Shown here piece after piece: positions 1 to 44,140 of a stretch of DNA of 64,000 nucleotides. A program made the translations under genes and the position numbers. Position 1 is the first letter of the stretch. Each line of letters opens with the position of its first letter. A model generated the notes under the pieces. That model saw only the letters and a program-made list of their open reading frames with translations. It was not told where the DNA came from and made no database searches. This DNA is from Candidatus Latescibacterota bacterium. GTDB taxonomy: Bacteria > Latescibacterota > UBA2968. The stretch covers positions 5,600,001 through 5,664,000 of the forward strand of contig OZ242311.1 in the NCBI GenBank assembly GCA_965207885.1, written 5' to 3'.

Positions 1-20
1 GTTGTTCCCGGTCGGCAGCA

Positions 21-52
21 GGTCCTGGGATCTCTCGGGACCTTTCGTTTTT
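21..52 (+). terminator. GC-rich hairpin plus U-rich tract in the leader of the PhyH gene (terminator or attenuator)
   Basis: GGTCCTGGG/CTCGGGACC stem followed by TTTCGTTTTTT, just before the GAGGTG RBS. Confidence 0.45.
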
Positions 53-64
53 TCGAGGTGTATT

Positions 65-850
65 ATGAAAAACCCAATTCCATCCCTAATGCTCAGTAGA
101 GAACAGATCGAAGCATTCTTTGAAACCGGATTCGTCATCGTACCGGACGTTTTCACACCCACCGAAATCGAAGAAATGCGAGCCGGATTTGACCGTCTGC
201 AAAAAATAGCCTACTCGCTATCGGAACCCGGGATCCACAACGGCTCTGATTTTGCCATTGAGAAAACGGAATCGGGGCGGGTCATCATTCACCGCATCTC
301 CTGGTGCGGGGCAGCCGAACCCGTGCTACTCGCATACGGCAAAGACCATCGCCTCCTCGGAATGGCGAGCCAGTTGCTGGACAGCAACGAAATGAACCAG
401 TTAATCAACCAGGCCCACTTCAAAATACCCGGCGACAACGTGGCATTTCCGTGGCATCAGGACAGCGAACATCGCGGATATGGAAAACCCTGGTGGAAGG
501 ACGTCAACGGACGCGGCAGCTTTGTCCAACAAGCCATCGCCATTGACGATGTAACCGAAGAAAGTGGACCTTTGAAATTCATCCCCGGAAGTTGCAAATT
601 GGGGCATCTGGGTCTGCTGAGTCGCAGCGAAGAAGAATACCCGGCACTCTTCAATCCCGACGACGCCATTACGGGGATCATGAAAGCTGGCAGCGTAGCC
701 CTATTCAACCCATACGTCATCCACGGCAGCGAACCGAACCGCTCGCAGAAACCGCGGCGCGTCTTTATAAACGGCTATGCTTGCCCCGGCGCCAACTCGA
801 GAACCTATCCTGGAAAGGGTGCTGGCAGACTCTTAAAAATCACCGACTAA
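65..850 (+). CDS. Phytanoyl-CoA dioxygenase (PhyH) family Fe(II)/2-oxoglutarate dioxygenase
   Basis: 'FFETGFVIVPDVF', HxD motif 'WHQD', distal His 'IHGS..N.S..RR'; ATG at 65 follows GAGG. Confidence 0.9.
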   Translation: MKNPIPSLMLSREQIEAFFETGFVIVPDVFTPTEIEEMRAGFDRLQKIAYSLSEPGIHNGSDFAIEKTESGRVIIHRISWCGAAEPVLLAYGKDHRLLGMASQLLDSNEMNQLINQAHFKIPGDNVAFPWHQDSEHRGYGKPWWKDVNGRGSFVQQAIAIDDVTEESGPLKFIPGSCKLGHLGLLSRSEEEYPALFNPDDAITGIMKAGSVALFNPYVIHGSEPNRSQKPRRVFINGYACPGANSRTYPGKGAGRLLKITD

Positions 851-862
851 CAACCAAACCTT

Positions 863-894
863 CTGGATCGCGGCTAACACCCTGCCGCGATGAC
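863..894. repeat. CTGGAT-hairpin-ATGAC palindromic intergenic repeat (REP/RPE/dRS3-like), copy 1
   Basis: ctggatcgcggctaacaccctgccgcgatgac; similar copies at 31689, 40464, 42539, 42611, 45638. Confidence 0.85.
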
Positions 895-940
895 GACACT
901 GTTGATAGAGTTGACAGAACGCCTAAGGTTGATCCATTGC

Positions 941-2398
941 TTAATTGAAAGACCTCTCCGCCTGCTTAACAATACCCTTCAACATGCGCTTGAAAATGAG
1001 ATAGTGGATGGGATAAAGGCCATACCAGTAAAGCAAGCCCCCCAGACCCAGAGGATCGAAAATAGCCGTCTGGGTTATCTGGCTACCCCCTTCCACGGGC
1101 TGGACCTCAAACTGAAGCCATGCCCGACCAGGCACCTTCATCTCTGCCTGCAAGCGCAGAAGGCGATGTTCTTCAAAAGCCTCAACGCGCCAGAAATCCA
1201 GGGGATCTCCCGGCCGCACATCAACCGGGTGTCGTCGCCCTCGCCGCATACCCACCCCACCCAGCAGCAAATCCACAAAACCGCGCAAATACCAGAGCCA
1301 TGTCGCAAAATACCAGCCCTGATCCCCCCCAATGCGCTGAACAGGATCAAAAGCTCGGCCGGGTTCCACACTCGCAAAAGCCTGCTGGCGATCAACAAGA
1401 CGAGAACCAAAACGCCTTCCACCCCATAAAGGCTCCTCACCGCTTGAAGACACCGCATCGCTCCAGCGGGTCTGAGCCATCTCCCGGTCCTCCTCCTCAA
1501 GCGCACGGGCCATCGCCTGACGCACATTTAGAGGACGGACGGGAAAACGCTCGCGCGCACCATCATCTCGGACAATCGTCTCATTCCGCAAACTATCGAT
1601 AAGCTTCTTACCCACCCGCGCATAAAGAGGCGTCACCAGCCCCAACCACAAACTGGAAAGACGGGGACTCAAAAAAGGCACCGGAATCATAAGACGTCGC
1701 ACGGCAATCTGACGGGCATATTCGCGCATCAACCCGCCGTAAGATAATTGTTGAGGACCCCCAATCTCAAAAACCGCGCTACCCTCCTCCTCCACATCCA
1801 GACCCCGGATCAAATAAGCAATCACATCCCCAATCGCAATCGGCTGGGTTGGCGTGCGGACCCAGCTCGGCGTAATCATAATCGGCAACTTATTGACCAG
1901 ACTCCGCACCATCTCAAAAGACAGCGAACCCGAACCAATAATAATAGAAGCGCGAAACTCCAGCGTCGCAGGTCCCTCGGAAGTTAGAATAGCCCCCACC
2001 TCCCGGCGACTCGCCAGATGGGAAGAAAGCTCACGATCCCCAACCAGACCCCCCAAATAAATAACGCGCCGAATCCCCTGCTGCAGCGCGACGCGAGCAA
2101 AATTTTGTGCCCCAATGCGGTCCTGCTCCTCAAAATTGGCTCTGGACCCCATAGAATGCACCAGATAGTACGCCGTATCTATCCCCTCCAGAGCAACCCT
2201 CAGCGAATCCCGATCCAGCACATCACCCGCGACAATCTCAGTATCGGAACAAAACCGACCAGCCAGATACTGGGGATTGCGAGCCAGGCAACGCACGCGC
2301 GCTCCTATTTCTTCAAGCGCCGGAACCAGCCGCCCACCAACATAACCGCTGGCTCCCGTCACCAGTACGAGCTTGTCTTTTCCCTTATCCTGAGACAT
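941..2398 (-). CDS. Atypical SDR/NAD(P)-binding oxidoreductase with C-terminal DUF2867-like domain (YbjT-like)
   Basis: TGASGYVG Rossmann motif; 'AYYLVHSM'; C-terminal 'IGGDQGWY...LDFWRVE...AEMKVPGRAWL'. Confidence 0.85.
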   Translation of the reverse strand: MSQDKGKDKLVLVTGASGYVGGRLVPALEEIGARVRCLARNPQYLAGRFCSDTEIVAGDVLDRDSLRVALEGIDTAYYLVHSMGSRANFEEQDRIGAQNFARVALQQGIRRVIYLGGLVGDRELSSHLASRREVGAILTSEGPATLEFRASIIIGSGSLSFEMVRSLVNKLPIMITPSWVRTPTQPIAIGDVIAYLIRGLDVEEEGSAVFEIGGPQQLSYGGLMREYARQIAVRRLMIPVPFLSPRLSSLWLGLVTPLYARVGKKLIDSLRNETIVRDDGARERFPVRPLNVRQAMARALEEEDREMAQTRWSDAVSSSGEEPLWGGRRFGSRLVDRQQAFASVEPGRAFDPVQRIGGDQGWYFATWLWYLRGFVDLLLGGVGMRRGRRHPVDVRPGDPLDFWRVEAFEEHRLLRLQAEMKVPGRAWLQFEVQPVEGGSQITQTAIFDPLGLGGLLYWYGLYPIHYLIFKRMLKGIVKQAERSFN

Positions 2399-2405
2399 CG
2401 CCTGC

Positions 2406-3440
2406 CTAATGCATATCTATGGACAGCACATAACTGAGCAGAGTCACCAAAAGCCACGTCGCCACCAGCACAACCCCAAAAGGGCGCTTCATCGCATTGC
2501 CCGACACAAAAATGCCGCAGCGGAAAACAACGAGAATAAACACCATTGCCGGAAACAAAAATTGGAAAAACTGACCATCTGCTTGCAAGCCACCTGGTGT
2601 TGCCGCGGCCGAGACACCAGCGACAAAGAGCACATTGAGAATATCCGCGCCGATAATATTGCCAACCGCCAGCTCGCCGTGCCCGCGTCTAACAGCGGTG
2701 ATCGCCGTCACGAGTTCTGGGAGCGACGTGCCAAACGCGACAAGCGTCGCCGAAATAATGTGCTTTGGCACGCCAATTCTCTCTGCCAAAATACTCACAC
2801 TGGGAATGAGAATTTGAGCCGAAAGAACAATAACCGCAATCGCCAGGATCAACTTGACAAGCACGAGGGACGCGTTACTCTCCTCCGCATCGGTTGCATC
2901 TTCCTGCTCAGCATCCGACATAGTCGCAGCCCATCGGATCGACTGCCAAATATAGAGCCCCAAAAGAACAACAAAAGCGAACCCGGCGAACTGTGGCAAA
3001 ACCCCACCCTGACTAAACAATTTCGCGGGAGACGCCCACGGAAAACAGGCGAGCACCAGAAGAATACCAGCCCCCACCTGCACATTAGACAACCGCGACG
3101 CCAACTGACGGTTGAGAGGTAGGGGAGCAATCAGAGAAGCCAGACCAATGATAAGGCCCGTATCGCAAATAATCGAACCGACGGCATTCCCAAGCGCAAG
3201 CCCCGGTTTCCCCTGAAGCGCCGAAAACACGGACACCGCCGCTTCCGGCGTCGTCGTACCAATACTCACAATCGTCGCACCGATAACCGCTTTCCCCAGC
3301 CCCCAGCGCACCGAAAGCGTCACAGCTTCATCGACGAGCCAATCCGCACCTTTGCCGAGCGTGTACAGCGTCACCGCAATAATCACAAGCATGTACGGAC
3401 TGGCCAATCCCATCACAAGCTCTTCAATCCACTTTTCCAT
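2406..3440 (-). CDS. Ca2+/Na+ antiporter (CaCA, YrbG-like)
   Basis: Two alpha repeats 'GTTTPE...GNAVGS' and 'GTSLPE...GNIIGA'; about 10 TM helices. Confidence 0.9.
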   Translation of the reverse strand: MEKWIEELVMGLASPYMLVIIAVTLYTLGKGADWLVDEAVTLSVRWGLGKAVIGATIVSIGTTTPEAAVSVFSALQGKPGLALGNAVGSIICDTGLIIGLASLIAPLPLNRQLASRLSNVQVGAGILLVLACFPWASPAKLFSQGGVLPQFAGFAFVVLLGLYIWQSIRWAATMSDAEQEDATDAEESNASLVLVKLILAIAVIVLSAQILIPSVSILAERIGVPKHIISATLVAFGTSLPELVTAITAVRRGHGELAVGNIIGADILNVLFVAGVSAAATPGGLQADGQFFQFLFPAMVFILVVFRCGIFVSGNAMKRPFGVVLVATWLLVTLLSYVLSIDMH

Positions 3441-3456
3441 CTTCTACCTTTCCCAA

Positions 3457-4230
3457 TCAAATAACAAAAATATCACTCGGACGATCCTGCTCTGCCACAC
3501 TCATCGGAAAAGACCGAATACCCTGACCCTGCAACATATCTGCACATGTCTCTCGCGCCAAATCCGGCCGATTATTTTTCTCACTCAAATGCGCCAGAAC
3601 CGCCTGCTGCAACCCCTCTCGCGCCAGATCGCACAACGCCTCGGCAGCCCCATCATTTGACAAATGACCGTGCGTACTATTAATCCTCTGCTTCAAAACC
3701 CAGGGATAAGGCCCATCCATCAGCAATTGCCGATCGTAATTCGACTCAATAATCAACAGATCAGCGCGGCGCATATGCTGATAAACCAACTGCGTCACCG
3801 TACCCATATCTGTAGCAATCGTCACATTGGCCTGCCCATCCGTCACAGAAAAATTCACGGGATCAGCGGCATCGTGAGGCAATTGAAACGCCTGAAAAGA
3901 CAAATCGCCAATTGAAAAAGCCTCATCATTTTCAAACACCCGAATCTTTTCAGTCCCTCGAAAAATCTTCTTCGACGCATTCAGCGTACCCTCCGTCATC
4001 CAAACGGACAACCCGTACCGCCGCGCCAACACCCCCACCCCCTTAATATGATCGGAATGCTCGTGACTCACCACAACAGCCTGCAAACCCGCTGGATCAA
4101 ACCCAACACCTCGCAAACGCTCTTCGATCTTCTTACCCGTCAAACCCGCATCGATAAGCACACTTGAAGAACCATTTTGAACACAAATCGAATTGCCACC
4201 GCTACCACTTGCCAACAAACAAATCTTCAC
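3457..4230 (-). CDS. MBL-fold metallo-hydrolase (YycJ/WalJ-like)
   Basis: 'LASGSGGN', 'SHEHSDH', 'PHDAADP', 'GHLSN', 'AHLSEKNN'; GTG start. Confidence 0.85.
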   Translation of the reverse strand: MKICLLASGSGGNSICVQNGSSSVLIDAGLTGKKIEERLRGVGFDPAGLQAVVVSHEHSDHIKGVGVLARRYGLSVWMTEGTLNASKKIFRGTEKIRVFENDEAFSIGDLSFQAFQLPHDAADPVNFSVTDGQANVTIATDMGTVTQLVYQHMRRADLLIIESNYDRQLLMDGPYPWVLKQRINSTHGHLSNDGAAEALCDLAREGLQQAVLAHLSEKNNRPDLARETCADMLQGQGIRSFPMSVAEQDRPSDIFVI

Positions 4231-4248
4231 CGGTAACTCCTCTATTCA

Positions 4249-6543
4249 CTACTCATTCACAATCCGCGCCACCCAAATACTAATCTCGTACAAAACTACG
4301 AGCGGCAGCGCCATCAAAACCTGAGACAGGGGATCGGGAGGGGTCAAAATAGCGGCGAGTATAATCCCGAACACAAGCGCATAACGCCGTCCCTTTCGCA
4401 TCCGATCGCGTGTTGCAATCCCCATCTTAGCCAAAAAAAACGTCAACACGGGCAACTCAAACACCAGGCCAAAAGCAATCAGAAGGCGCAGCACAAAACC
4501 GATATACTCCCCAATATCAAACTGCGGCATCACAATCGTATCAGCAGCCATACCAACAAAAAACTTCATCGCCAATGGGATAACCAGCCAGTACGCCAAA
4601 ACAGCACCAACAACAAAACACACAGTAGCCGAACCAATCACAAACGTCACAAATCGCCGCTCGCTGGCAAACAGACCGGGCGCGACAAACATCCAGATCT
4701 GAAAAATCAAAAACGGCAGCGCCAGAATCCCCCCACCCACCAGCGCGATCTGCAACTTGACCATAAACATGCCCATCGGTCTTAAGGTCTGCAATATCAT
4801 TTTATCTTCCAGTTCGCGGGTAGGGTGGATCAACACATCCAAAATCTCATTGACAAAAATTCCGCAAAAAACCGCGCCTATAATAATCGCGGCCAACCCC
4901 TTCAAAATGCGCCACCGCAACTCCTCCAGATGATCGAGAAAAGGCATCGGCTTGCCTTCATCGGGCAGATCTTCTTCATCGCGGTCTGGCATAATCGCCG
5001 GCACCGTACCCTCAGGCGGTGCAACATCCTCCTCCACCTCTCGCGGTCGCCGAATAGCCGACACCGCCAACCCCATCAACGCGATCACGCCGCACAACTG
5101 AGAAAACAAATCGCCAAACCGCATATAAAGCGTCTGCTCATTGCTCGGTGCAATAGTCCCTGCCACAACAGCCTCGTGAAACAAACCCGTCTTTTGCTCT
5201 TGCCGCCCATAGGGATCGATAAACATCGACACACCCGTATTGGCACAGCGCACCACCCAACGCCTGTTCTCAACAGCCCTGAACGTCGCAATATCCGCGT
5301 GCTGATAAGGTGCTGACGTGCGCCCGTACCACCCATCATTCGTAATCACCACCAAAAACTCGGCACCCCGAACCATCATATCGCGCGCAAGCCAGGGAAA
5401 CACCGAATCAAAACAAATCATCCCGGAAAACTTTCCACCCGGCACCTCAAAAACCGTAAGCGCAGTCCCGCTCTCAAAATCGCCGCTGATATACCCACCG
5501 CCACTCCATTGAAAATCGCGCAAAAACCCGAGCAACTTGGGAAAAGGCGCCCGCTCTCCAAACGGCACCACCTTCACCTTGTCGTAATGCGGCAAATCGC
5601 CCCCGCCAGGCTCCAACAAAAAAGAAGAATTGTAATAGCGATCCCGCGCCGCGGCCTCGAAGCGATTCGCCCCCATATACAGATAAATCCCCAGCGAATC
5701 GACCAGCGCCTGCACCCGCGCCTGATACGCCTGTTGCGATGCATCATCACGCTTCAAATACGCGGGCAAAGCCGCCTCTGACCACACAACCAACCGCGTC
5801 CCCGACTCCGCGGCCTGAATCGTCAAAGGCTCCAACTTGTTAAAATTGTGATCAAAACCCCAGTAAGATTTCTCAACAGGCGGCACATTTTGCTGCACAA
5901 TGGCAACCTTCAAATCGCCCTCGGCAACCGGCTCTGCCATACGCCACAAACCAAATCCCGCTGGCAGTGCAAAAGCCAGAACCAGAGCACCAACCATCAA
6001 GTCTCGCCGCGCACTTTCCAATGCCTTAAACGCAATCAGATTAACCACCACCACCCAGAACGACACCCCGTAAACCCCTGTCGCCTCTGCAATCTGGATC
6101 AAAGGCAAATAATCCACCTGGCTATGCCCGAGGAGCATCCACGGAAAACCCATATCGCCCAGCGTATTAAAATATTCAAACCCCACCCACAAAAAAGGCA
6201 CCATCCACAACCCCAGCCTGCCAACGCGCGCCATTGCAAACGCCCACAACCACACAAACAGCCCCCGAAAAAGCGACATATACAAAATTGCCCCCGCCAT
6301 ACCCGGGGGGGTAATCCACGCAATCCAATAAACACTCGCACCGTAAAAAACCACACCCTGCAAAAAACCCGCGCCAAAAGCCACGCGCCCACGCAGATTT
6401 TCGGCAACGGGAATCAGAGGCAACAAACTGATACAAGCCAAAAAACCGAGCGGCAAAGGAGGAAAAGCCGCTGCCATCAGCAGACCCGACAAAATCGGAT
6501 ACCCGAGCACCAACCGCCAACCCCACGTATTGTCCTGCGCCAT
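4249..6543 (-). CDS. lnt-tatC: Fusion of apolipoprotein N-acyltransferase Lnt (N-terminal) and twin-arginine translocase TatC (C-terminal)
   Basis: Lnt triad E 'WSEAALP', K 'YDKVKVVPFGE', C 'ICFDSVFP', plus 'TNDGWYG' and 'ANTGVS'; acidic Pro-rich linker; TatC 'MPFLDHLEELRWR', 'APGLFASE', 'FELP', 'TPPDPLSQ'. One open frame; alternative start at 6561. Confidence 0.9.
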   Translation of the reverse strand: MAQDNTWGWRLVLGYPILSGLLMAAAFPPLPLGFLACISLLPLIPVAENLRGRVAFGAGFLQGVVFYGASVYWIAWITPPGMAGAILYMSLFRGLFVWLWAFAMARVGRLGLWMVPFLWVGFEYFNTLGDMGFPWMLLGHSQVDYLPLIQIAEATGVYGVSFWVVVVNLIAFKALESARRDLMVGALVLAFALPAGFGLWRMAEPVAEGDLKVAIVQQNVPPVEKSYWGFDHNFNKLEPLTIQAAESGTRLVVWSEAALPAYLKRDDASQQAYQARVQALVDSLGIYLYMGANRFEAAARDRYYNSSFLLEPGGGDLPHYDKVKVVPFGERAPFPKLLGFLRDFQWSGGGYISGDFESGTALTVFEVPGGKFSGMICFDSVFPWLARDMMVRGAEFLVVITNDGWYGRTSAPYQHADIATFRAVENRRWVVRCANTGVSMFIDPYGRQEQKTGLFHEAVVAGTIAPSNEQTLYMRFGDLFSQLCGVIALMGLAVSAIRRPREVEEDVAPPEGTVPAIMPDRDEEDLPDEGKPMPFLDHLEELRWRILKGLAAIIIGAVFCGIFVNEILDVLIHPTRELEDKMILQTLRPMGMFMVKLQIALVGGGILALPFLIFQIWMFVAPGLFASERRFVTFVIGSATVCFVVGAVLAYWLVIPLAMKFFVGMAADTIVMPQFDIGEYIGFVLRLLIAFGLVFELPVLTFFLAKMGIATRDRMRKGRRYALVFGIILAAILTPPDPLSQVLMALPLVVLYEISIWVARIVNE

Positions 6544-6547
6544 ACTA

Positions 6548-6582
6548 TCACCTGTGTTCATCTGTGTCTATCTGTGGTTAAA
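6548..6582. repeat. Short ATCTGTG(T/G)-type tandem repeat
   Basis: tcacctgtgttcatctgtgtctatctgtggttaaa; a related run lies at 56688-56716. Confidence 0.5.
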
Positions 6583-6676
6583 AATCCCTATTGCAAAAAA
6601 CACAAAGATTACGGAATATAAAGACGGGTCAAATCCCTGTCAATTGCCGTCCAAAAAAACAAACCCGGTCTATAAC

Positions 6677-7891
6677 ATGTTACCCGACCTCAATACAGAA
6701 CTCCAGGCATTGCGCGAACAAAACCTCTACCGCTCGGTGCGAAGTGTGGAAACCAGCCAGGAACCCCGCATCCGCATCAAAGGGCGAGAACTCATCCTCT
6801 TTTGCTCAAACAACTATCTGGGCCTCGCCAACCATCCCGTCCTCAAAGGTGCAGCAATCGAAGCGCTCAACACCTATGGAAGCAGCACCGTAGCATCGGC
6901 ACTCATCTCGGGATACATGCCCCCACACGCCGACCTCGAAAGCAGCATGGCACAATTCCTCGACACAGAAGCAGCCATCGCATTTCCCACGGGCTACACG
7001 GCCAACCTCGGCGTTATACCCGCCCTCATCAACCGCGACGACATCATTTTTAGCGACCAATTAAATCACCGCAGCATCATTGATAGCTGTCGCCTCTCCC
7101 GCGCACAAATCGCCATCTATAACCACTGCGACATCGCCCACCTCGAAACCCAGCTCAAAACCTCATCCGCCCATCGCCGTCGCCTCATCGTCACCGATGG
7201 CGTCTTCTCAATGGACGGAGACATCGCCCCACTGCCCGAACTCGTCTCCCTCGCCGAACAACACAACGCCATCCTCATGGTCGATGACGCCCACGCAACC
7301 GGGGTCCTCGGACCTGGGGGTCGCGGCACCTTCGAACACTTTGGCCTCTCTCCCGAAGCCATCGACATCCTCATGACCTCCGGCAGCAAAGCCCTCGGCG
7401 CATCCGGCGGATTCATCTGTGGCAGCCGCGACCTCATCGACCTCATACGCAACCGCTCGGCAGCGTACATCTACACCACCGCAATGCCGCCCGACGCATG
7501 TGCATCCACCACCGCGGCACTCGACCTCATCCAGCGCGATACCAGCTTGCGCCAACGCCTGTGGCACAACACAACAACCATCAGCCAGCACCTTCAAGCC
7601 CTCGGATTCGACCTCGCCCAATCCCAAACCCACATCATACCCATACTCGTTGGCGACGCCCAGAAAACCGTTGAAATATCCGAACACCTCTACAACCACG
7701 GCATCTACCTCTACGGCATACGCCCCCCCACCGTACCCGAGGGCCAAAGCCGTCTGCGCCTCTCCGTCATGGCAACCCATACCGACGACGACATCGCACA
7801 ATTATTAGACGCCATGGCCGAAGTCCGACACAGTTTTTTTGGAGACCACCAGGTCCAACCCCCTCGACCACATCCGAATCGTCCTGGTTGA
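6677..7891 (+). CDS. bioF: 8-amino-7-oxononanoate synthase
   Basis: 'FCSNNYLGL', 'TGYTAN', 'DGVFSMDGD', 'DDAHATG', PLP Lys in 'SKALG', 'IRPPTVP'. Confidence 0.88.
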   Translation: MLPDLNTELQALREQNLYRSVRSVETSQEPRIRIKGRELILFCSNNYLGLANHPVLKGAAIEALNTYGSSTVASALISGYMPPHADLESSMAQFLDTEAAIAFPTGYTANLGVIPALINRDDIIFSDQLNHRSIIDSCRLSRAQIAIYNHCDIAHLETQLKTSSAHRRRLIVTDGVFSMDGDIAPLPELVSLAEQHNAILMVDDAHATGVLGPGGRGTFEHFGLSPEAIDILMTSGSKALGASGGFICGSRDLIDLIRNRSAAYIYTTAMPPDACASTTAALDLIQRDTSLRQRLWHNTTTISQHLQALGFDLAQSQTHIIPILVGDAQKTVEISEHLYNHGIYLYGIRPPTVPEGQSRLRLSVMATHTDDDIAQLLDAMAEVRHSFFGDHQVQPPRPHPNRPG

Positions 7892-8618
7892 ACCCAAAGA
7901 ACCCGGCAACATCGGCGCCGTGGCTCGCGCGATGAAAAACACGGGCTTATCGCACCTCTACCTCGTCAATCCCCCCGATCACACCAGCGGCGAAGCCCGC
8001 GCAATGGCGCATGGATCGGGCGACATCCTCTACGGTGCTACCGTCGTATCCTCACTACCCGAAGCACTCGCAGACGTATCGCTTGCCGTGGGCACATCCC
8101 ATCGCAAACGCCGCGAATTCGACATCGTACACCCACCTCAAACCGCGACAGACAAACTGTTATCCCTTCCCGAAAATCACAAAGGAGCCATCGTTTTTGG
8201 CCGGGAAGAAAACGGACTGACCAACAACGAAATCCAACTGTGTCAGCTAATCTCCCGCATTCCTTCAGCCGTGCGTTACCCTTCCCTCAACCTGTCGCAA
8301 GCCACCCTCATCTATGGCTACGAACTCTTTCGCGCAACCCATTCCGAAACCCCCTACAAACCATCGGAACTCGATCTGGCTACGCACCGCGAACTCGAAT
8401 CCATGTACGACCACATCCAAACCGCACTCGACAAACTCGGCTTTGTCTCGCGGCACCGCCCCCAGACCTTTATCCGATCCATCCGCCGAATCTTCAGCCG
8501 CATCGACATGGAACACCGCGACGTGGCGACCATCCACCGCGTCTTCCGCCAGGTCGATCGCTTCATCGCGCGGCACGGCCTCAACCCCATCCCATCACCC
8601 GATAAAAAAACAGAGTAA
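7839..8618 (+). CDS. trmJ: SPOUT RNA methyltransferase, TrmJ/LasT family
   Basis: 'IVLVEP..PGNIGAVARAMKN', 'FGRE..GL.N', 'SLNLSQA'; TTG start overlaps the end of bioF. Confidence 0.85.
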   Translation: METTRSNPLDHIRIVLVEPKEPGNIGAVARAMKNTGLSHLYLVNPPDHTSGEARAMAHGSGDILYGATVVSSLPEALADVSLAVGTSHRKRREFDIVHPPQTATDKLLSLPENHKGAIVFGREENGLTNNEIQLCQLISRIPSAVRYPSLNLSQATLIYGYELFRATHSETPYKPSELDLATHRELESMYDHIQTALDKLGFVSRHRPQTFIRSIRRIFSRIDMEHRDVATIHRVFRQVDRFIARHGLNPIPSPDKKTE

Positions 8619-8634
8619 CCGATCTCTGCGGTAG

Positions 8635-9984
8635 TCACCCCCCAAACCCCAGCGTCTCCAAAAGCGACAGACTCAAAGACTCCATTGCCGGCACTGTACC
8701 CACACCTCCCAAAGACGACAGAGATGCCCACGTCTCATACCCTCCCTCTTGCGCCAATGCCTCATCTGTACACACATAACCGATATACCCATTCGCCAGA
8801 CTCACCAGCATCAACGGCGAAACCGACGTCTGCGCCTTAATCCGAAGGCCAGTCTCCACAAAAATCTCCCCCGGCAACGCCAGAATCGCCGCATCGCCCA
8901 ACCGGATCGCTTGCACGGGTGCCGTCATCTGTTCGGGCAACGCCGCCAACCGCTGGCACTGCCTGGCATACACACCTACCCGATCCTTCCGCACCGGTTG
9001 TCCCACCACCCAACTGAATGGACCCTCCTCGTATTCGTATCCACCTGCGAGAATCTGTTCGGCAATATCGAGATCCGTCTCTGTAATCACTTTCCTCGAA
9101 AATTCCAGCGTCCCCGTCACAGCCTCCAATGCCAATTCCTCATCCAAATCCATCAACTGAATCTCTGTCAAAACATGCCCTGCCAGAACATTTGCCATCC
9201 GCCGCGCTCTGGGGTGCCCCCGATCCCGCCAAATCCGCTCGCCACTATAATCGTTGTTATTAATCTGTCCAGACGCCGCATTCCACAAAATCGGCACACA
9301 GTTCCCACCTATATAATGCCGCATCAAATTGAAAAACTGGCCAAAATAATCCGCCGACACCTCCCCGACACTGCCCGTTCCCACATAGTGCAGTGAAAAA
9401 CTCGCCACCACCGAAATCGGCGTACCATCTACCCCCTCCACATACATCATCGCCAACTCCGGATCGATCTCGCCCATCGGCCGCACGAGATCCGGATTGT
9501 TCAAACCCGGATTCATCCGCACGGTCCCATCCTTCATCAACCAGCGCCGATAAAACGAAATACGATCCTCCATCACACTGGCAAATCCCGCCCGGGCAGG
9601 CTGCATTCTCTTAATAGCCAACTCCACTGCATCGGCCACTTTCAGCGGGAGCCAGGTCGTGTACCCCTCATCTTCACCCATACCCAGAAGATTGCTCACC
9701 CCTGCCCCTGAATGCGTATGTGTCGCATTCACCATCACGCACTCAGGAGATATCCCACACCGTTCTTCAATACGCGCCTTCACGGCATTCGCAATCGCTT
9801 CTGGCACCGCGATCAAATCGCAAGTCACCATCGCAATCCTGACATCTCCATTATCGATCACCAGTGCCTTGGCCAGAAGCTCATCGTGTACATCCTCTCC
9901 GTATCGCGGCTGAAAACTTCCCGGCATCGTAACCCCCAGCCAGGGTGTAATATTGGACGTAGCAGCCCCTGCTTGCAATTTCAT
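8635..9984 (-). CDS. Neutral/alkaline ceramidase-like amidohydrolase
   Basis: 'GVHD.L.AKALV'-like segment, 'NATHTHSG', 'LPGEIFVE.G', 'LANGYIGY...GGYE'. Confidence 0.7.
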   Translation of the reverse strand: MKLQAGAATSNITPWLGVTMPGSFQPRYGEDVHDELLAKALVIDNGDVRIAMVTCDLIAVPEAIANAVKARIEERCGISPECVMVNATHTHSGAGVSNLLGMGEDEGYTTWLPLKVADAVELAIKRMQPARAGFASVMEDRISFYRRWLMKDGTVRMNPGLNNPDLVRPMGEIDPELAMMYVEGVDGTPISVVASFSLHYVGTGSVGEVSADYFGQFFNLMRHYIGGNCVPILWNAASGQINNNDYSGERIWRDRGHPRARRMANVLAGHVLTEIQLMDLDEELALEAVTGTLEFSRKVITETDLDIAEQILAGGYEYEEGPFSWVVGQPVRKDRVGVYARQCQRLAALPEQMTAPVQAIRLGDAAILALPGEIFVETGLRIKAQTSVSPLMLVSLANGYIGYVCTDEALAQEGGYETWASLSSLGGVGTVPAMESLSLSLLETLGFGG

Positions 9985-10146
9985 AATAATCCTCCCGTGT
10001 TAGATTTCACATCTTTTCTGTATTATATACCTGATATTTTCGCAACAGTAAAAGAAAAATGGAAACAGGGCGTTTTGTCGAATGAAGTTCAATGCGGTTG
10101 ACAGTGGTTCAGGGAACGCTTATTCTTTGAACAGGAGGTGGTTTTT

Positions 10147-42665: not shown

Positions 42666-44060
42666 TTACCCCTGACCTTTTTTCAACAATTCAAGAGCTG
42701 CGTTGATCAAAGGATCATCCTCTGGCTTATCGGGAAATTCAACGTGAACATCAGGTGATATACCCTTCCCTTCTAACGGCTCGCCATCGGGCGTCAAAGC
42801 CACCCACGATGGAAGAAATACAGTCACCTTATTCGCCAGGCGCACAGGCTTTGGATTGCCCGAACTGCCATAGGACTTCTCGCCCATCAGCGTGCATTGC
42901 GGCACCTGCTTCATCATCAACAAAAACGCCTCGCAACTGCTCATATTGACCGGCCCCATCAAAACGACCGTACGCCCTCGAAAACCGGGCCGAATCGGCT
43001 TCAGCGTCCGCGTCTTAATCTTGGAAAAACCAGAAGGACTGGAAGTGTCGCGATTGAGATGACCGGCATATACCACAGAACGCTCGACAAATCGACCAGC
43101 TATCTTTTTTGCCAACCGCTCGTCGCCTCCGCCGTTGAATCGAATATCCAGAATCAGTGTATCATCGGGCGACAGTCCGTCGACCCATTTCTCGGCGGCC
43201 TCAATATTCCGCTCGATATTCCGGGCAGTTTGTTGTGACCAACTTCCAATCATCAGATACGCAGGTCCATCCGGAAACCTCCCGGTAGCCACCACGCGAT
43301 TGACGGATCGAAGCTGAGGTACTATTCGTTTCAGCAACTCTCGATCCGCGTTGGGGCGAACATTGCGTCGAAAACCAGCTAATCGATCACCATCCGCATC
43401 GAGCCAAATATGCGCGTCGCGGGCGACCTCAAGAAGTTGTCCGGCAAGAATGGCAAACTGGCCGGGCGTCTTCGCATCAATCAACCGCGATTCGAACTCG
43501 GCAAACCTGGCGTCCCAATCTATGCCCCGCAGATCGCGATAGGAATACTTCTCCTCAATGGCTGACCTCAACTGCTTCAACGATTTCCGATTCTTTTCTG
43601 GATCCAAGGGTTTCACATCACCCAATGGCGCAGTCCTGAAAGAGATGGGATACGGAACCGCGGGAAGCCCATTGGTTCCTCGAAAATTCTGATGGCGTTT
43701 CGAGTTAATACCCAGGCTGTATTCGCGGCTCGGCTTGAGTTTCACAGGCAGAACAATGGTCGTATCAGAAATCCACCGGGGCTTTCCGACAACCTCTGGG
43801 AGCATAGATTTGTTCCCTATAATCGTAAACGAATAGCCTCTTTTGGTATCCATAGGCTGGTCAAAAGTAACGTGCAATTCCGTCGTAGCGGCATCTACCG
43901 ACTGCGCGCCGTTCTCCGGCACAGTCCGCACCACACGAGGCGGTTCCTCGGCACCTGCGGTCATGCATCCGATGAACAAACAGAAGCCCAACAGTGTGCG
44001 ACGCGCTGTTGCGAACATCCCGAGACCAGAGCGATAGGACTTAAAATATCGAGTAGTCAT
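42666..44060 (-). CDS. Secreted S41 peptidase with N-terminal Ig-like (Big_5-like) domain
   Basis: 'PPRVV.T.P.NGA..V......VTFDQPM'; S41 motifs 'DAH', 'DIRFNGGG', 'SSCE', 'G..S.GSSG', 'GI.PDV'; ATG 44060 follows GGAGGG. Confidence 0.85.
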   Translation of the reverse strand: MTTRYFKSYRSGLGMFATARRTLLGFCLFIGCMTAGAEEPPRVVRTVPENGAQSVDAATTELHVTFDQPMDTKRGYSFTIIGNKSMLPEVVGKPRWISDTTIVLPVKLKPSREYSLGINSKRHQNFRGTNGLPAVPYPISFRTAPLGDVKPLDPEKNRKSLKQLRSAIEEKYSYRDLRGIDWDARFAEFESRLIDAKTPGQFAILAGQLLEVARDAHIWLDADGDRLAGFRRNVRPNADRELLKRIVPQLRSVNRVVATGRFPDGPAYLMIGSWSQQTARNIERNIEAAEKWVDGLSPDDTLILDIRFNGGGDERLAKKIAGRFVERSVVYAGHLNRDTSSPSGFSKIKTRTLKPIRPGFRGRTVVLMGPVNMSSCEAFLLMMKQVPQCTLMGEKSYGSSGNPKPVRLANKVTVFLPSWVALTPDGEPLEGKGISPDVHVEFPDKPEDDPLINAALELLKKGQG

Positions 44061-44097
44061 TTGACCCTCCAATCGAGTGAAAAACCAGTGGCGTCTT

Positions 44098-44140
44098 AGT
44101 GTTCTGCCTAAATAATACACTGATACGCCTCAACTGTCAA
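44098..44140 (-). promoter_or_regulatory. Sigma70 promoter with overlapping YtrA-type inverted-repeat operator
   Basis: Minus strand TTGACA-N17-TATTAT; imperfect palindrome AGTGTT-N12-TACACT (44098-44121) resembles the B. subtilis YtrA box AGTGTA-N13-TACACT. Confidence 0.75.

Follow-up and report, generated by a model that had tools for sequence, protein, structure and literature searches.

Apolipoprotein N-acyltransferase (Lnt) performs the last step of lipoprotein maturation, and TatC recognises the signals handled by the twin-arginine translocation (Tat) pathway; lnt and tatC are normally separate genes. A stretch of 64,000 nucleotides from a Candidatus Latescibacterota bacterium (assembly GCA_965207885.1, contig OZ242311.1, positions 5,600,001 to 5,664,000; hereafter the window) carries both as a single gene. 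The locus raises the question of whether one protein with two activities is made, and whether the two activities are connected. Our analyses of the window, the host genome and related genomes confirmed that the fusion is real. The explanation that we lean towards, with reservations set out below, is one bifunctional chain in which the Lnt and TatC modules act independently. This is apparently an undescribed, real and conserved domain architecture of two textbook proteins.

The fusion gene occupies 4249..6561 on the minus strand of the window (stop codon 4249-4251). Lnt and TatC lie in one frame, without a stop, of 770 aa from ATG 6561 or 764 aa from ATG 6543; residue numbers are counted from ATG 6561 (770-aa form). 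An earlier description based on the letters of the DNA alone (the sequence-only reading) had noted an uninterrupted frame of about 764 aa, without naming its strand, and this was borne out.

The Lnt and TatC modules

Two Pfam domains were detected in the Lnt half: the N-terminal membrane domain (LNT_N, PF20154; residues 25-175, 6037..6489, minus strand, 110.5 bits) and the periplasmic nitrilase-like domain (CN_hydrolase, PF00795; residues 218-473, 5143..5910, minus strand, 121.2 bits). The NCBIfam model for lnt (TIGR00546) scored 327.4 bits against a cut-off of 132.9. This half could be aligned over its full length with the solved Lnt structures of E. coli and P. aeruginosa (E ~1e-33). The catalytic triad of E. 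coli Lnt is given in the literature as E267, K335 and C387, and these residues in PDB chain 6q3a align with E262, K328 and C383 of the fusion protein (5776-5778, 5578-5580 and 5413-5415, minus strand). The intact E-K-C nitrilase triad claimed earlier was thus recovered, and all 42 fused proteins of an alignment reaching down to 38% identity share it. Judged by these residues, the Lnt half looks catalytically competent and would N-acylate diacylated apolipoproteins.

E. coli Lnt has been described as having seven transmembrane (TM) helices, a nitrilase-like (Nit) domain and an eighth helix, TM8, with both the N- and the C-terminus in the cytosol (PMC5500890). The AlphaFold2 model of the fusion protein (mean pLDDT 83.3, pTM 0.68) consists of two well-predicted modules. 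Its Lnt module has helices up to residue 208, which include the LNT_N region, a mixed alpha/beta domain at residues 217-480 and a helix at residues 485-503 (5053..5109, minus strand) that matches TM8 and agrees with the hydrophobic segments of the sequence. The predicted layout is a membrane domain, a periplasmic Nit domain and a final TM helix, with sidedness taken from E. coli Lnt.

The TatC half (residues 539-770; 4252..4947, minus strand) matched the TatC profile (PF00902) at residues 543-753 with 223 bits and over the whole profile (positions 1-208 of 208), and the NCBIfam model tatC (TIGR00945) with 212.6 bits (cut-off 132.7). Met539, encoded by ATG 4947, pairs with residue 1 of chain 4b4a (A. 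aeolicus TatC; E 4.5e-43 over residues 1-230), and a complete TatC does begin at about 4947, as had been suggested. E547, E634 and E702 occupy the positions of A. aeolicus E9, E96 and E165. The key signal-peptide contacts of E. coli TatC are H12, E15, F94, Y100 and E103 according to a 2026 report on the Tat core-complex structure (PMC13323110). From an alignment of residues 539-767 to residues 7-235 of chain 9dzz, together with motif spacing, H544, E547, F625 and E634 were found to correspond to H12, E15, F94 and E103, while another aromatic residue, F631, replaces Y100. H544, E547, F625, E634 and E702 are invariant in 42 of the 42 fused proteins over the same identity range; F631 is not. By these criteria of sequence the TatC half looks functional.

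Some variation was observed in TatC of the two sister families of the same class. An extra segment of ~60-100 aa is present in the first periplasmic loop after TM1 (alignment A1, columns ~800-870; for example L061 and L063), and some of these proteins bear long acidic C-terminal tails. For TatC of N. salsuginis and of M. xanthus, periplasmic inserts of an unrelated kind have been described (PMC13323110).

Reality of the fusion

The same open frame was found well outside the window. Each of the 40 nearest genomes (40/40) gave one full-length match to the fusion in one frame. In the order to which the host belongs, TatC lies within a frame of 764-841 aa in 53 of 53 genomes, two of the frames being cut by contig ends (506 and 713 aa), so that the conservation in relatives for which the sequence-only reading had suggested a check was observed; the 52 species other than the host are represented by independent assemblies. 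A near-identical contig of a DNA run (X8) spans the whole stretch without differences and may be the source assembly.

Assembled contigs from metatranscriptomic libraries of two studies (labelled coral and sponge metagenomes), 90-95% identical to the window, bridge the junction: record 1 of X1 covers 4000-5265, record 10 of X3 covers 4000-5403, and record 5 of X2 covers 4805-5091, with X2 and X3 lacking coverage of ~5410-6210. Linker indels in these contigs sum to multiples of three. RNA libraries can contain DNA and the contigs give no transcript ends; they weakly support transcription across the junction, and they are good support for the frame being kept in other strains.

The host genome is a single contig (C1) of 6.23 Mb, in which the window spans C1:5600001-5664000. 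The fusion gene is its sole TatC match and its sole Lnt match over the cut-off. A separate lnt or tatC was looked for and none was found, and the fused protein must therefore supply both functions. An assembly or sequencing artefact, or a decaying pseudogene, was considered as the explanation of the long frame. The idea can be dismissed almost entirely: the frame is open in all 53 genomes of the order, many of them single-contig assemblies, strain-level linker indels preserve the reading frame, all key residues are invariant, and no other lnt or tatC exists in the genome.

Distribution and evolutionary origin

The TatC part was found in 162 of 168 genomes of the phylum at E <1e-10. In the other classes of the phylum TatC is encoded in frames of ~250-300 aa, and no lnt-tatC linkage was found among the 19 genomes of those classes for which both rows were listed; in one of these classes' single-contig genomes (G050) the two genes are 2.4 Mb apart.

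The two sister families present a range of intermediate states. Of 71 loci, 31 are fused, 6 have one in-frame stop, and in 24 the genes are adjacent in another frame; in the remainder, 3 pairs are separated by 1.4-6.7 kb, no lnt lies within the fetched stretch of 5 loci, and the motif missed 2, of which one is fused (G156) and the other bears an in-frame stop (G100). The count leaves out eight genomes, five with unlisted rows and three without a TatC match. In total lnt and tatC are adjacent, in one of the three states, in 63 of 71 sister-family genomes, and fused and split states were both found within genera g25 and g31.

A maximum-likelihood tree was calculated from concatenated Lnt and TatC sequences. 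Its 71 rows comprise 62 sister-family genomes and 9 proteins of the window's order; it omits the 5 genomes without lnt, the 2 motif misses, and G094 and G126, which have truncated Lnt. At least 4 changes between fused and split states are needed on this tree, and the well-supported branches alone force 4. With shuffled labels the mean was 23.6 changes, and none of 500 shuffles gave a number as low. The fused proteins form four groups with split forms between them: the window's order, 24 species of g25 as one clade, 5 species of g31 as another, and G157 from g30. The group with an in-frame stop is the exact sister of the 24-species fused clade of g25. Because the genes are unlinked in the outgroup classes, the simplest history would be that adjacency was gained once at the base of the class, followed by a tight stop/start arrangement (overlapping in G112) and then by three to four independent fusions.

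Two irregular cases were noted. In a member of the host's genus (G019:C1:5245416-5247715) the match to the fusion is broken near the N-terminus into two pieces that overlap but lie in different frames (residues 5-101 and 61-770), as if the 5' end had undergone a frameshift or a small duplication. Longer frames were seen for free TatC as well: 406-464 aa in family f10, 553 aa in G065 and 653 aa in G042. The part of the G042 frame upstream of TatC looks non-coding, and the remaining long frames might carry extensions or other fusions.

Linker and topology

Between the modules lies a cytoplasmic linker of 35 aa (residues 504-538; 4948..5052, minus strand) that is acidic, rich in Pro, predicted to be disordered and hypervariable among relatives. 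The acidic Pro-rich linker quoted in the sequence-only reading corresponds exactly to these residues. In the AlphaFold2 model pLDDT is <50 at residues 510-538, and the first TatC helix starts at residue 541. Across 114 fused proteins (of 128, those in which both anchors occur), linker length is 17-97 aa (median 37); Pro, Glu, Ala and Asp make up 58% of the residues, and the net charge is negative in 111. The linker is not alignable between families.

Nearly every split form has an ATG in frame with the TatC motif and 15-32 codons upstream of it, and a comparable acidic stretch comes after this ATG, which in G112 overlaps the end of lnt. For this reason the linker is best read as a former Lnt tail joined to an acidic extension or spacer that TatC already had at its N-terminus. 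Since the C-terminus of E. coli Lnt is cytosolic and TatC begins on the cytoplasmic side, the fusion is topologically sound. The compatible topology proposed earlier agrees with the cytosolic location of both termini of E. coli Lnt in PMC5500890, from which sidedness is carried over here. A complex prediction of Lnt 1-505 against TatC 539-770 (alignment A1), run without controls, scored 0.00 and was not used as evidence.

Possible separate production of TatC

A gene-level fusion need not be a protein-level one. TatC might also, or only, be produced as a separate protein, either by initiation at Met539 (ATG 4947) or by proteolysis of the linker, in which no internal signal-peptide cleavage site is evident. 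Met539 is unchanged in all 42 fused proteins and equivalent to the first residue of A. aeolicus TatC. The nine residues beside it (P, F, L, H, L, E, E, L, R) are, however, equally invariant, and Met539 is therefore better seen as part of a conserved motif of the signal-peptide pocket. The motif is kept in split forms too, where the likely start is 15-32 codons further upstream.

Ribosome-binding signals give a similar picture. The 3' end of the 16S rRNA of the genome has the usual anti-Shine-Dalgarno tail, and Shine-Dalgarno (SD) cores were detected genome-wide at 289 of 525 unambiguous ATG starts (55%) versus 2731 of 30983 internal in-frame ATGs (8.8%). In the window a weak AAGG stands 7 nt upstream of ATG 4947, and GAGG-type cores precede 7 of 29 distinct junctions in the window's order, in favour of a separate TatC when set against the 8.8% of internal ATGs. 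Only 3 of 31 sister-family fused genes have a core before this Met, in contrast, which equals background and not the 55% of true starts. Within 17 nt before the TatC Met, cores were found in 11 of 30 adjacent split forms and 0 of 3 separated ones. The frequency in fused genes is thus at or modestly above background and far below that of true starts, and conservation of an SD core before Met539 was rejected as an argument for an internal start. A promoter-like site was looked for before 4947 and not found. Internal initiation of TatC is not supported by these data, and the possibility raised in the sequence-only reading that TatC is made only from ATG 4947 finds little backing. We regard separate production of TatC, by either route, as improbable.

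Tat and lipoprotein pathways of the host

A single TatA-family gene (PF02416, 70.7 bits) was identified at C1:1597004-1597153, and no second TatA/TatB-family gene was found in the genome with PF02416. The earlier remark that the window holds no tatA or tatB is consistent with this, the only family match being elsewhere on the contig. As far as PF02416 sees, the predicted Tat system is of the minimal TatA + TatC kind. The genes for the enzymes that precede Lnt are also single, and both are far from the fusion gene: lgt at C1:5456115-5456825 and lspA at C1:4680004-4680411. It has been described that Lnt acts third, after Lgt and LspA (PMC3850990). No match to lptD (PF04453) was obtained in the host genome; the same model matched in only 2 of 14 control genomes and is uninformative.

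A count of Tat-type lipoproteins was made in 4940 rough open reading frames (ORFs), whose N-termini were scanned by home-made rules that make for a crude predictor. Lipoprotein-type signals were detected in 105 ORFs, of which 9 (loose) or 6 (strict) have a twin arginine and about 4-6 are convincing by eye. The strict Tat motif with a hydrophobic stretch was found in 58 ORFs (control 4/2860); 16-20 of these are classical by eye, and most are not lipoproteins. On this rough census the clients of Lnt and TatC overlap little, and the sole Lnt and sole TatC would mostly serve different clients. One weaker candidate Tat lipoprotein is encoded in the window itself (42666-44120, minus strand), with an N-terminal twin arginine followed by a lipobox-like Cys.

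A probable single protein with two independent modules

The explanation that seems to us somewhat better than the others is that one bifunctional chain is made and that its modules act independently. In this scheme an inner-membrane polypeptide of ~85 kDa would consist of Lnt, with its seven TM helices, periplasmic nitrilase-like domain and TM8 ending in the cytoplasm, the linker, and a six-helix TatC. The flexible, negatively charged linker would tether Lnt to TatC on the cytoplasmic side. Lnt would N-acylate the lipoproteins of the cell, most of them Sec-exported, after Lgt and LspA, and TatC would join the single TatA in a minimal TatAC translocase, whose folded substrates would for the most part not be lipoproteins. 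Neighbouring lnt and tatC genes would have become fused when the stop codon or the frame offset between them was lost, on at least three to four occasions within one class-level clade, and the fusion would then have been kept: it would carry no topological cost, and 1:1 co-expression and co-insertion would be fixed. The single polypeptide is presumably the mature form, and independent action of the two modules would be in keeping with the small overlap of their clients and with the disordered, highly variable linker between them.

Mycobacterial Ppm1 (Rv2051c / BCG_2070c) offers the nearest documented analogue. According to PMC3850990, an Lnt domain is fused there to polyprenol-monophosphomannose synthase, the two are separate proteins in M. 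smegmatis and C. glutamicum, and the two activities of Ppm1 are separable. As in the present case, an N-terminal Lnt is naturally fused to the product of an operon neighbour, and the separable activities are a precedent for independence of the Lnt and TatC modules. The partner in Ppm1, however, glycosylates lipoproteins and so has an obvious pathway link to Lnt, whereas the partner here is the receptor of a translocase and shares few clients with Lnt.

Several points weigh against independence. The ~85-kDa species is a prediction from the gene. The signal census is built on home-made regular expressions applied to home-made gene calls, and its lipoprotein rule gave hits at internal positions in 19 of 2860 control genes. 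Adjacency of lnt and tatC is class-wide (63/71 in the sister families plus 53/53 in the order), and at least three to four independent fusions took place, more than would be expected for an unrelated pair, which fits a functional link of the Rosetta-stone kind. The tether also enters TatC 2-5 residues before the twin-arginine pocket, beside the site where TatB helices pack in E. coli (PMC13323110), and some influence on Tat function is therefore plausible.

Possible functional coupling of the modules

The alternative with most to be said for it is functional coupling. Selection might station Lnt at the Tat translocon, for example as three Lnt round a TatC trimer, speeding the maturation of Tat lipoproteins or coordinating envelope biogenesis; or the acidic tether might tune the capture of signal peptides. 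In favour of such a role, adjacency has been kept across the class and the fusions show no clear reversion. A few convincing Tat-type lipoprotein signals exist (for example at genome positions 749650-750759, 5701164-5702123, 2552359-2553447 and 3236852-3237496). The negative charge of the linker in 111 of the 114 fused proteins points the same way, and so does its meeting TatC just before H544 and E547, the equivalents of the E. coli signal-peptide contacts H12 and E15 (PMC13323110). On the other hand, Lnt is the third step of a pathway whose first two enzymes are unlinked, >90% of the predicted lipoproteins are non-Tat and most Tat signals are on non-lipoproteins, the linker is disordered and hypervariable, and g25 and g31 each contain both states. 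We hold functional coupling to be unlikely, although it deserves consideration.

In the sequence-only reading the protein had been proposed to be a coupled export-and-acylation station for Tat-exported lipoproteins. This is not supported: about 4-6 of 105 predicted lipoprotein signals are Tat-type, the genes for Lgt and LspA lie elsewhere, linker sequences vary greatly, and close relatives are split. The small client overlap, the unlinked Lgt and LspA, and closely related species with split genes argue against an obligatory hand-off between the modules.

A more elaborate, adaptive version is slightly less probable still. An Lnt on each TatC of a trimeric receptor could create an envelope-biogenesis hub, in which lipoproteins, Tat-exported or general, are finished beside the translocon and the acidic tether acts electrostatically on cationic signal peptides, as an antenna or a gate. 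If this were true, repeated fusion of the same pair would reflect selection, not opportunity, and a functional link would tie Tat export to the maturation of lipoproteins in diderm bacteria in a way that has gone unrecognised.

The locus is informative in other ways too. The only TatC of this cell tolerates an enzyme of 500 residues and eight helices that ends a short distance ahead of the signal-peptide pocket, and this naturally constrains models of Tat receptor oligomerisation and substrate docking. It is also a clean, datable and repeated case of gene fusion from an adjacent pair, with sister species in intermediate states (another frame, or one in-frame stop).

Comparison with known systems and public records

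Canonical Lnt (E. coli PDB 5N6H/5XHQ/6Q3A; P. aeruginosa 5N6M) resembles the N-terminal half in its full-length family match, conserved catalytic residues and cytoplasmic termini, and canonical TatC (A. aeolicus 4B4A/4HTS; E. coli TatBC 9DZZ/9E02) resembles the C-terminal half in its full-length match and substrate-binding residues. The canonical proteins are separate, whereas here they form one polypeptide with a 35-aa acidic tether and no separate copy. The split pairs of the sister families (for example G112, G121 and G078) share gene order, strand, the N-terminal motif of TatC and the acidic stretch before it; they differ by a stop codon or a frame offset, and are one point mutation or an indel of 1-2 nt away from the fused state.

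None of the titles and abstracts listed in literature searches on TatC, Lnt, Gemmatimonadetes and Latescibacteria describes an lnt-tatC architecture, and neither "fusion" nor "fused" is present in the text, supplements apart, of a 2013 survey of TatC diversity (PMC3827258). The fusion had been put forward as not known to be characterised, and no published description came to light in these searches. A HMMER pass over 1.84 billion cluster representatives, in which a fused protein from elsewhere would be expected above ~400 bits, gave 40,499 hits. Among the 150 of these that were listed, only P0038 (904 bits) and P0082 (555 bits) match both halves; the longer Lnt proteins among the 150 are Lnt-SNase, PAP2-Lnt or Lnt with unnamed extensions, none with TatC. 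The architecture of CN_hydrolase with TatC, for which a domain search had been suggested, is present in the ESM Atlas, where one 53-member cluster has all three domains and is commonest in Candidatus Latescibacterota.

In the public records the fused proteins carry the name apolipoprotein N-acyltransferase and nothing more. An automated survey will for this reason count such genomes among those without tatC, and might infer in error that they have no Tat pathway.

Other Lnt architectures were seen in the same search (P0208, P0230, P0138 and P0171): Lnt with a staphylococcal-nuclease domain, a PAP2 phosphatase with Lnt, and two Lnt proteins extended at the C-terminus by ~350 residues without a match in Pfam.

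Gene start, upstream signals and surroundings

ATG 6543 (764 aa) is probably the real start of the fusion gene, because an SD-like AGGTGA (6548..6553, minus strand) lies 4 nt before it. Upstream of the gene is a sigma-70-type promoter-like sequence, TTGACA-17-TATATT (6615..6643, minus strand; 11/12 matches, a consensus match only). Downstream neighbours in the window encode an MBL-fold hydrolase and a Na/Ca exchanger; the divergent upstream neighbours encode a class I/II aminotransferase and a SpoU methylase. The flanking genes are related to neither the Lnt nor the Tat pathway. The divergent aminotransferase gene, taken as its longest ORF (6530..7891, plus strand), overlaps the 5' end of the fusion gene (window 6530-6561), and its true start is probably further downstream than 6530.

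Strand asymmetry is very strong in this region. On the plus strand of window positions 1-10000, GC skew is ~-0.3 and AT skew ~+0.3 regardless of gene orientation, and both flip near 10000. Over the genome, GC skew in 100-kb windows ranges from -0.22 to +0.20 with ~ten sign changes, which is unusual for a single-origin chromosome. A two-gene module is present twice in the genome, at C1:90699-92071 and C1:6197939-6199311, with identical predicted proteins of 245 aa and 198 aa. An untrimmed circular overlap at the contig ends was considered and rejected, identity at that offset being 0.296; the duplication is a repeat.

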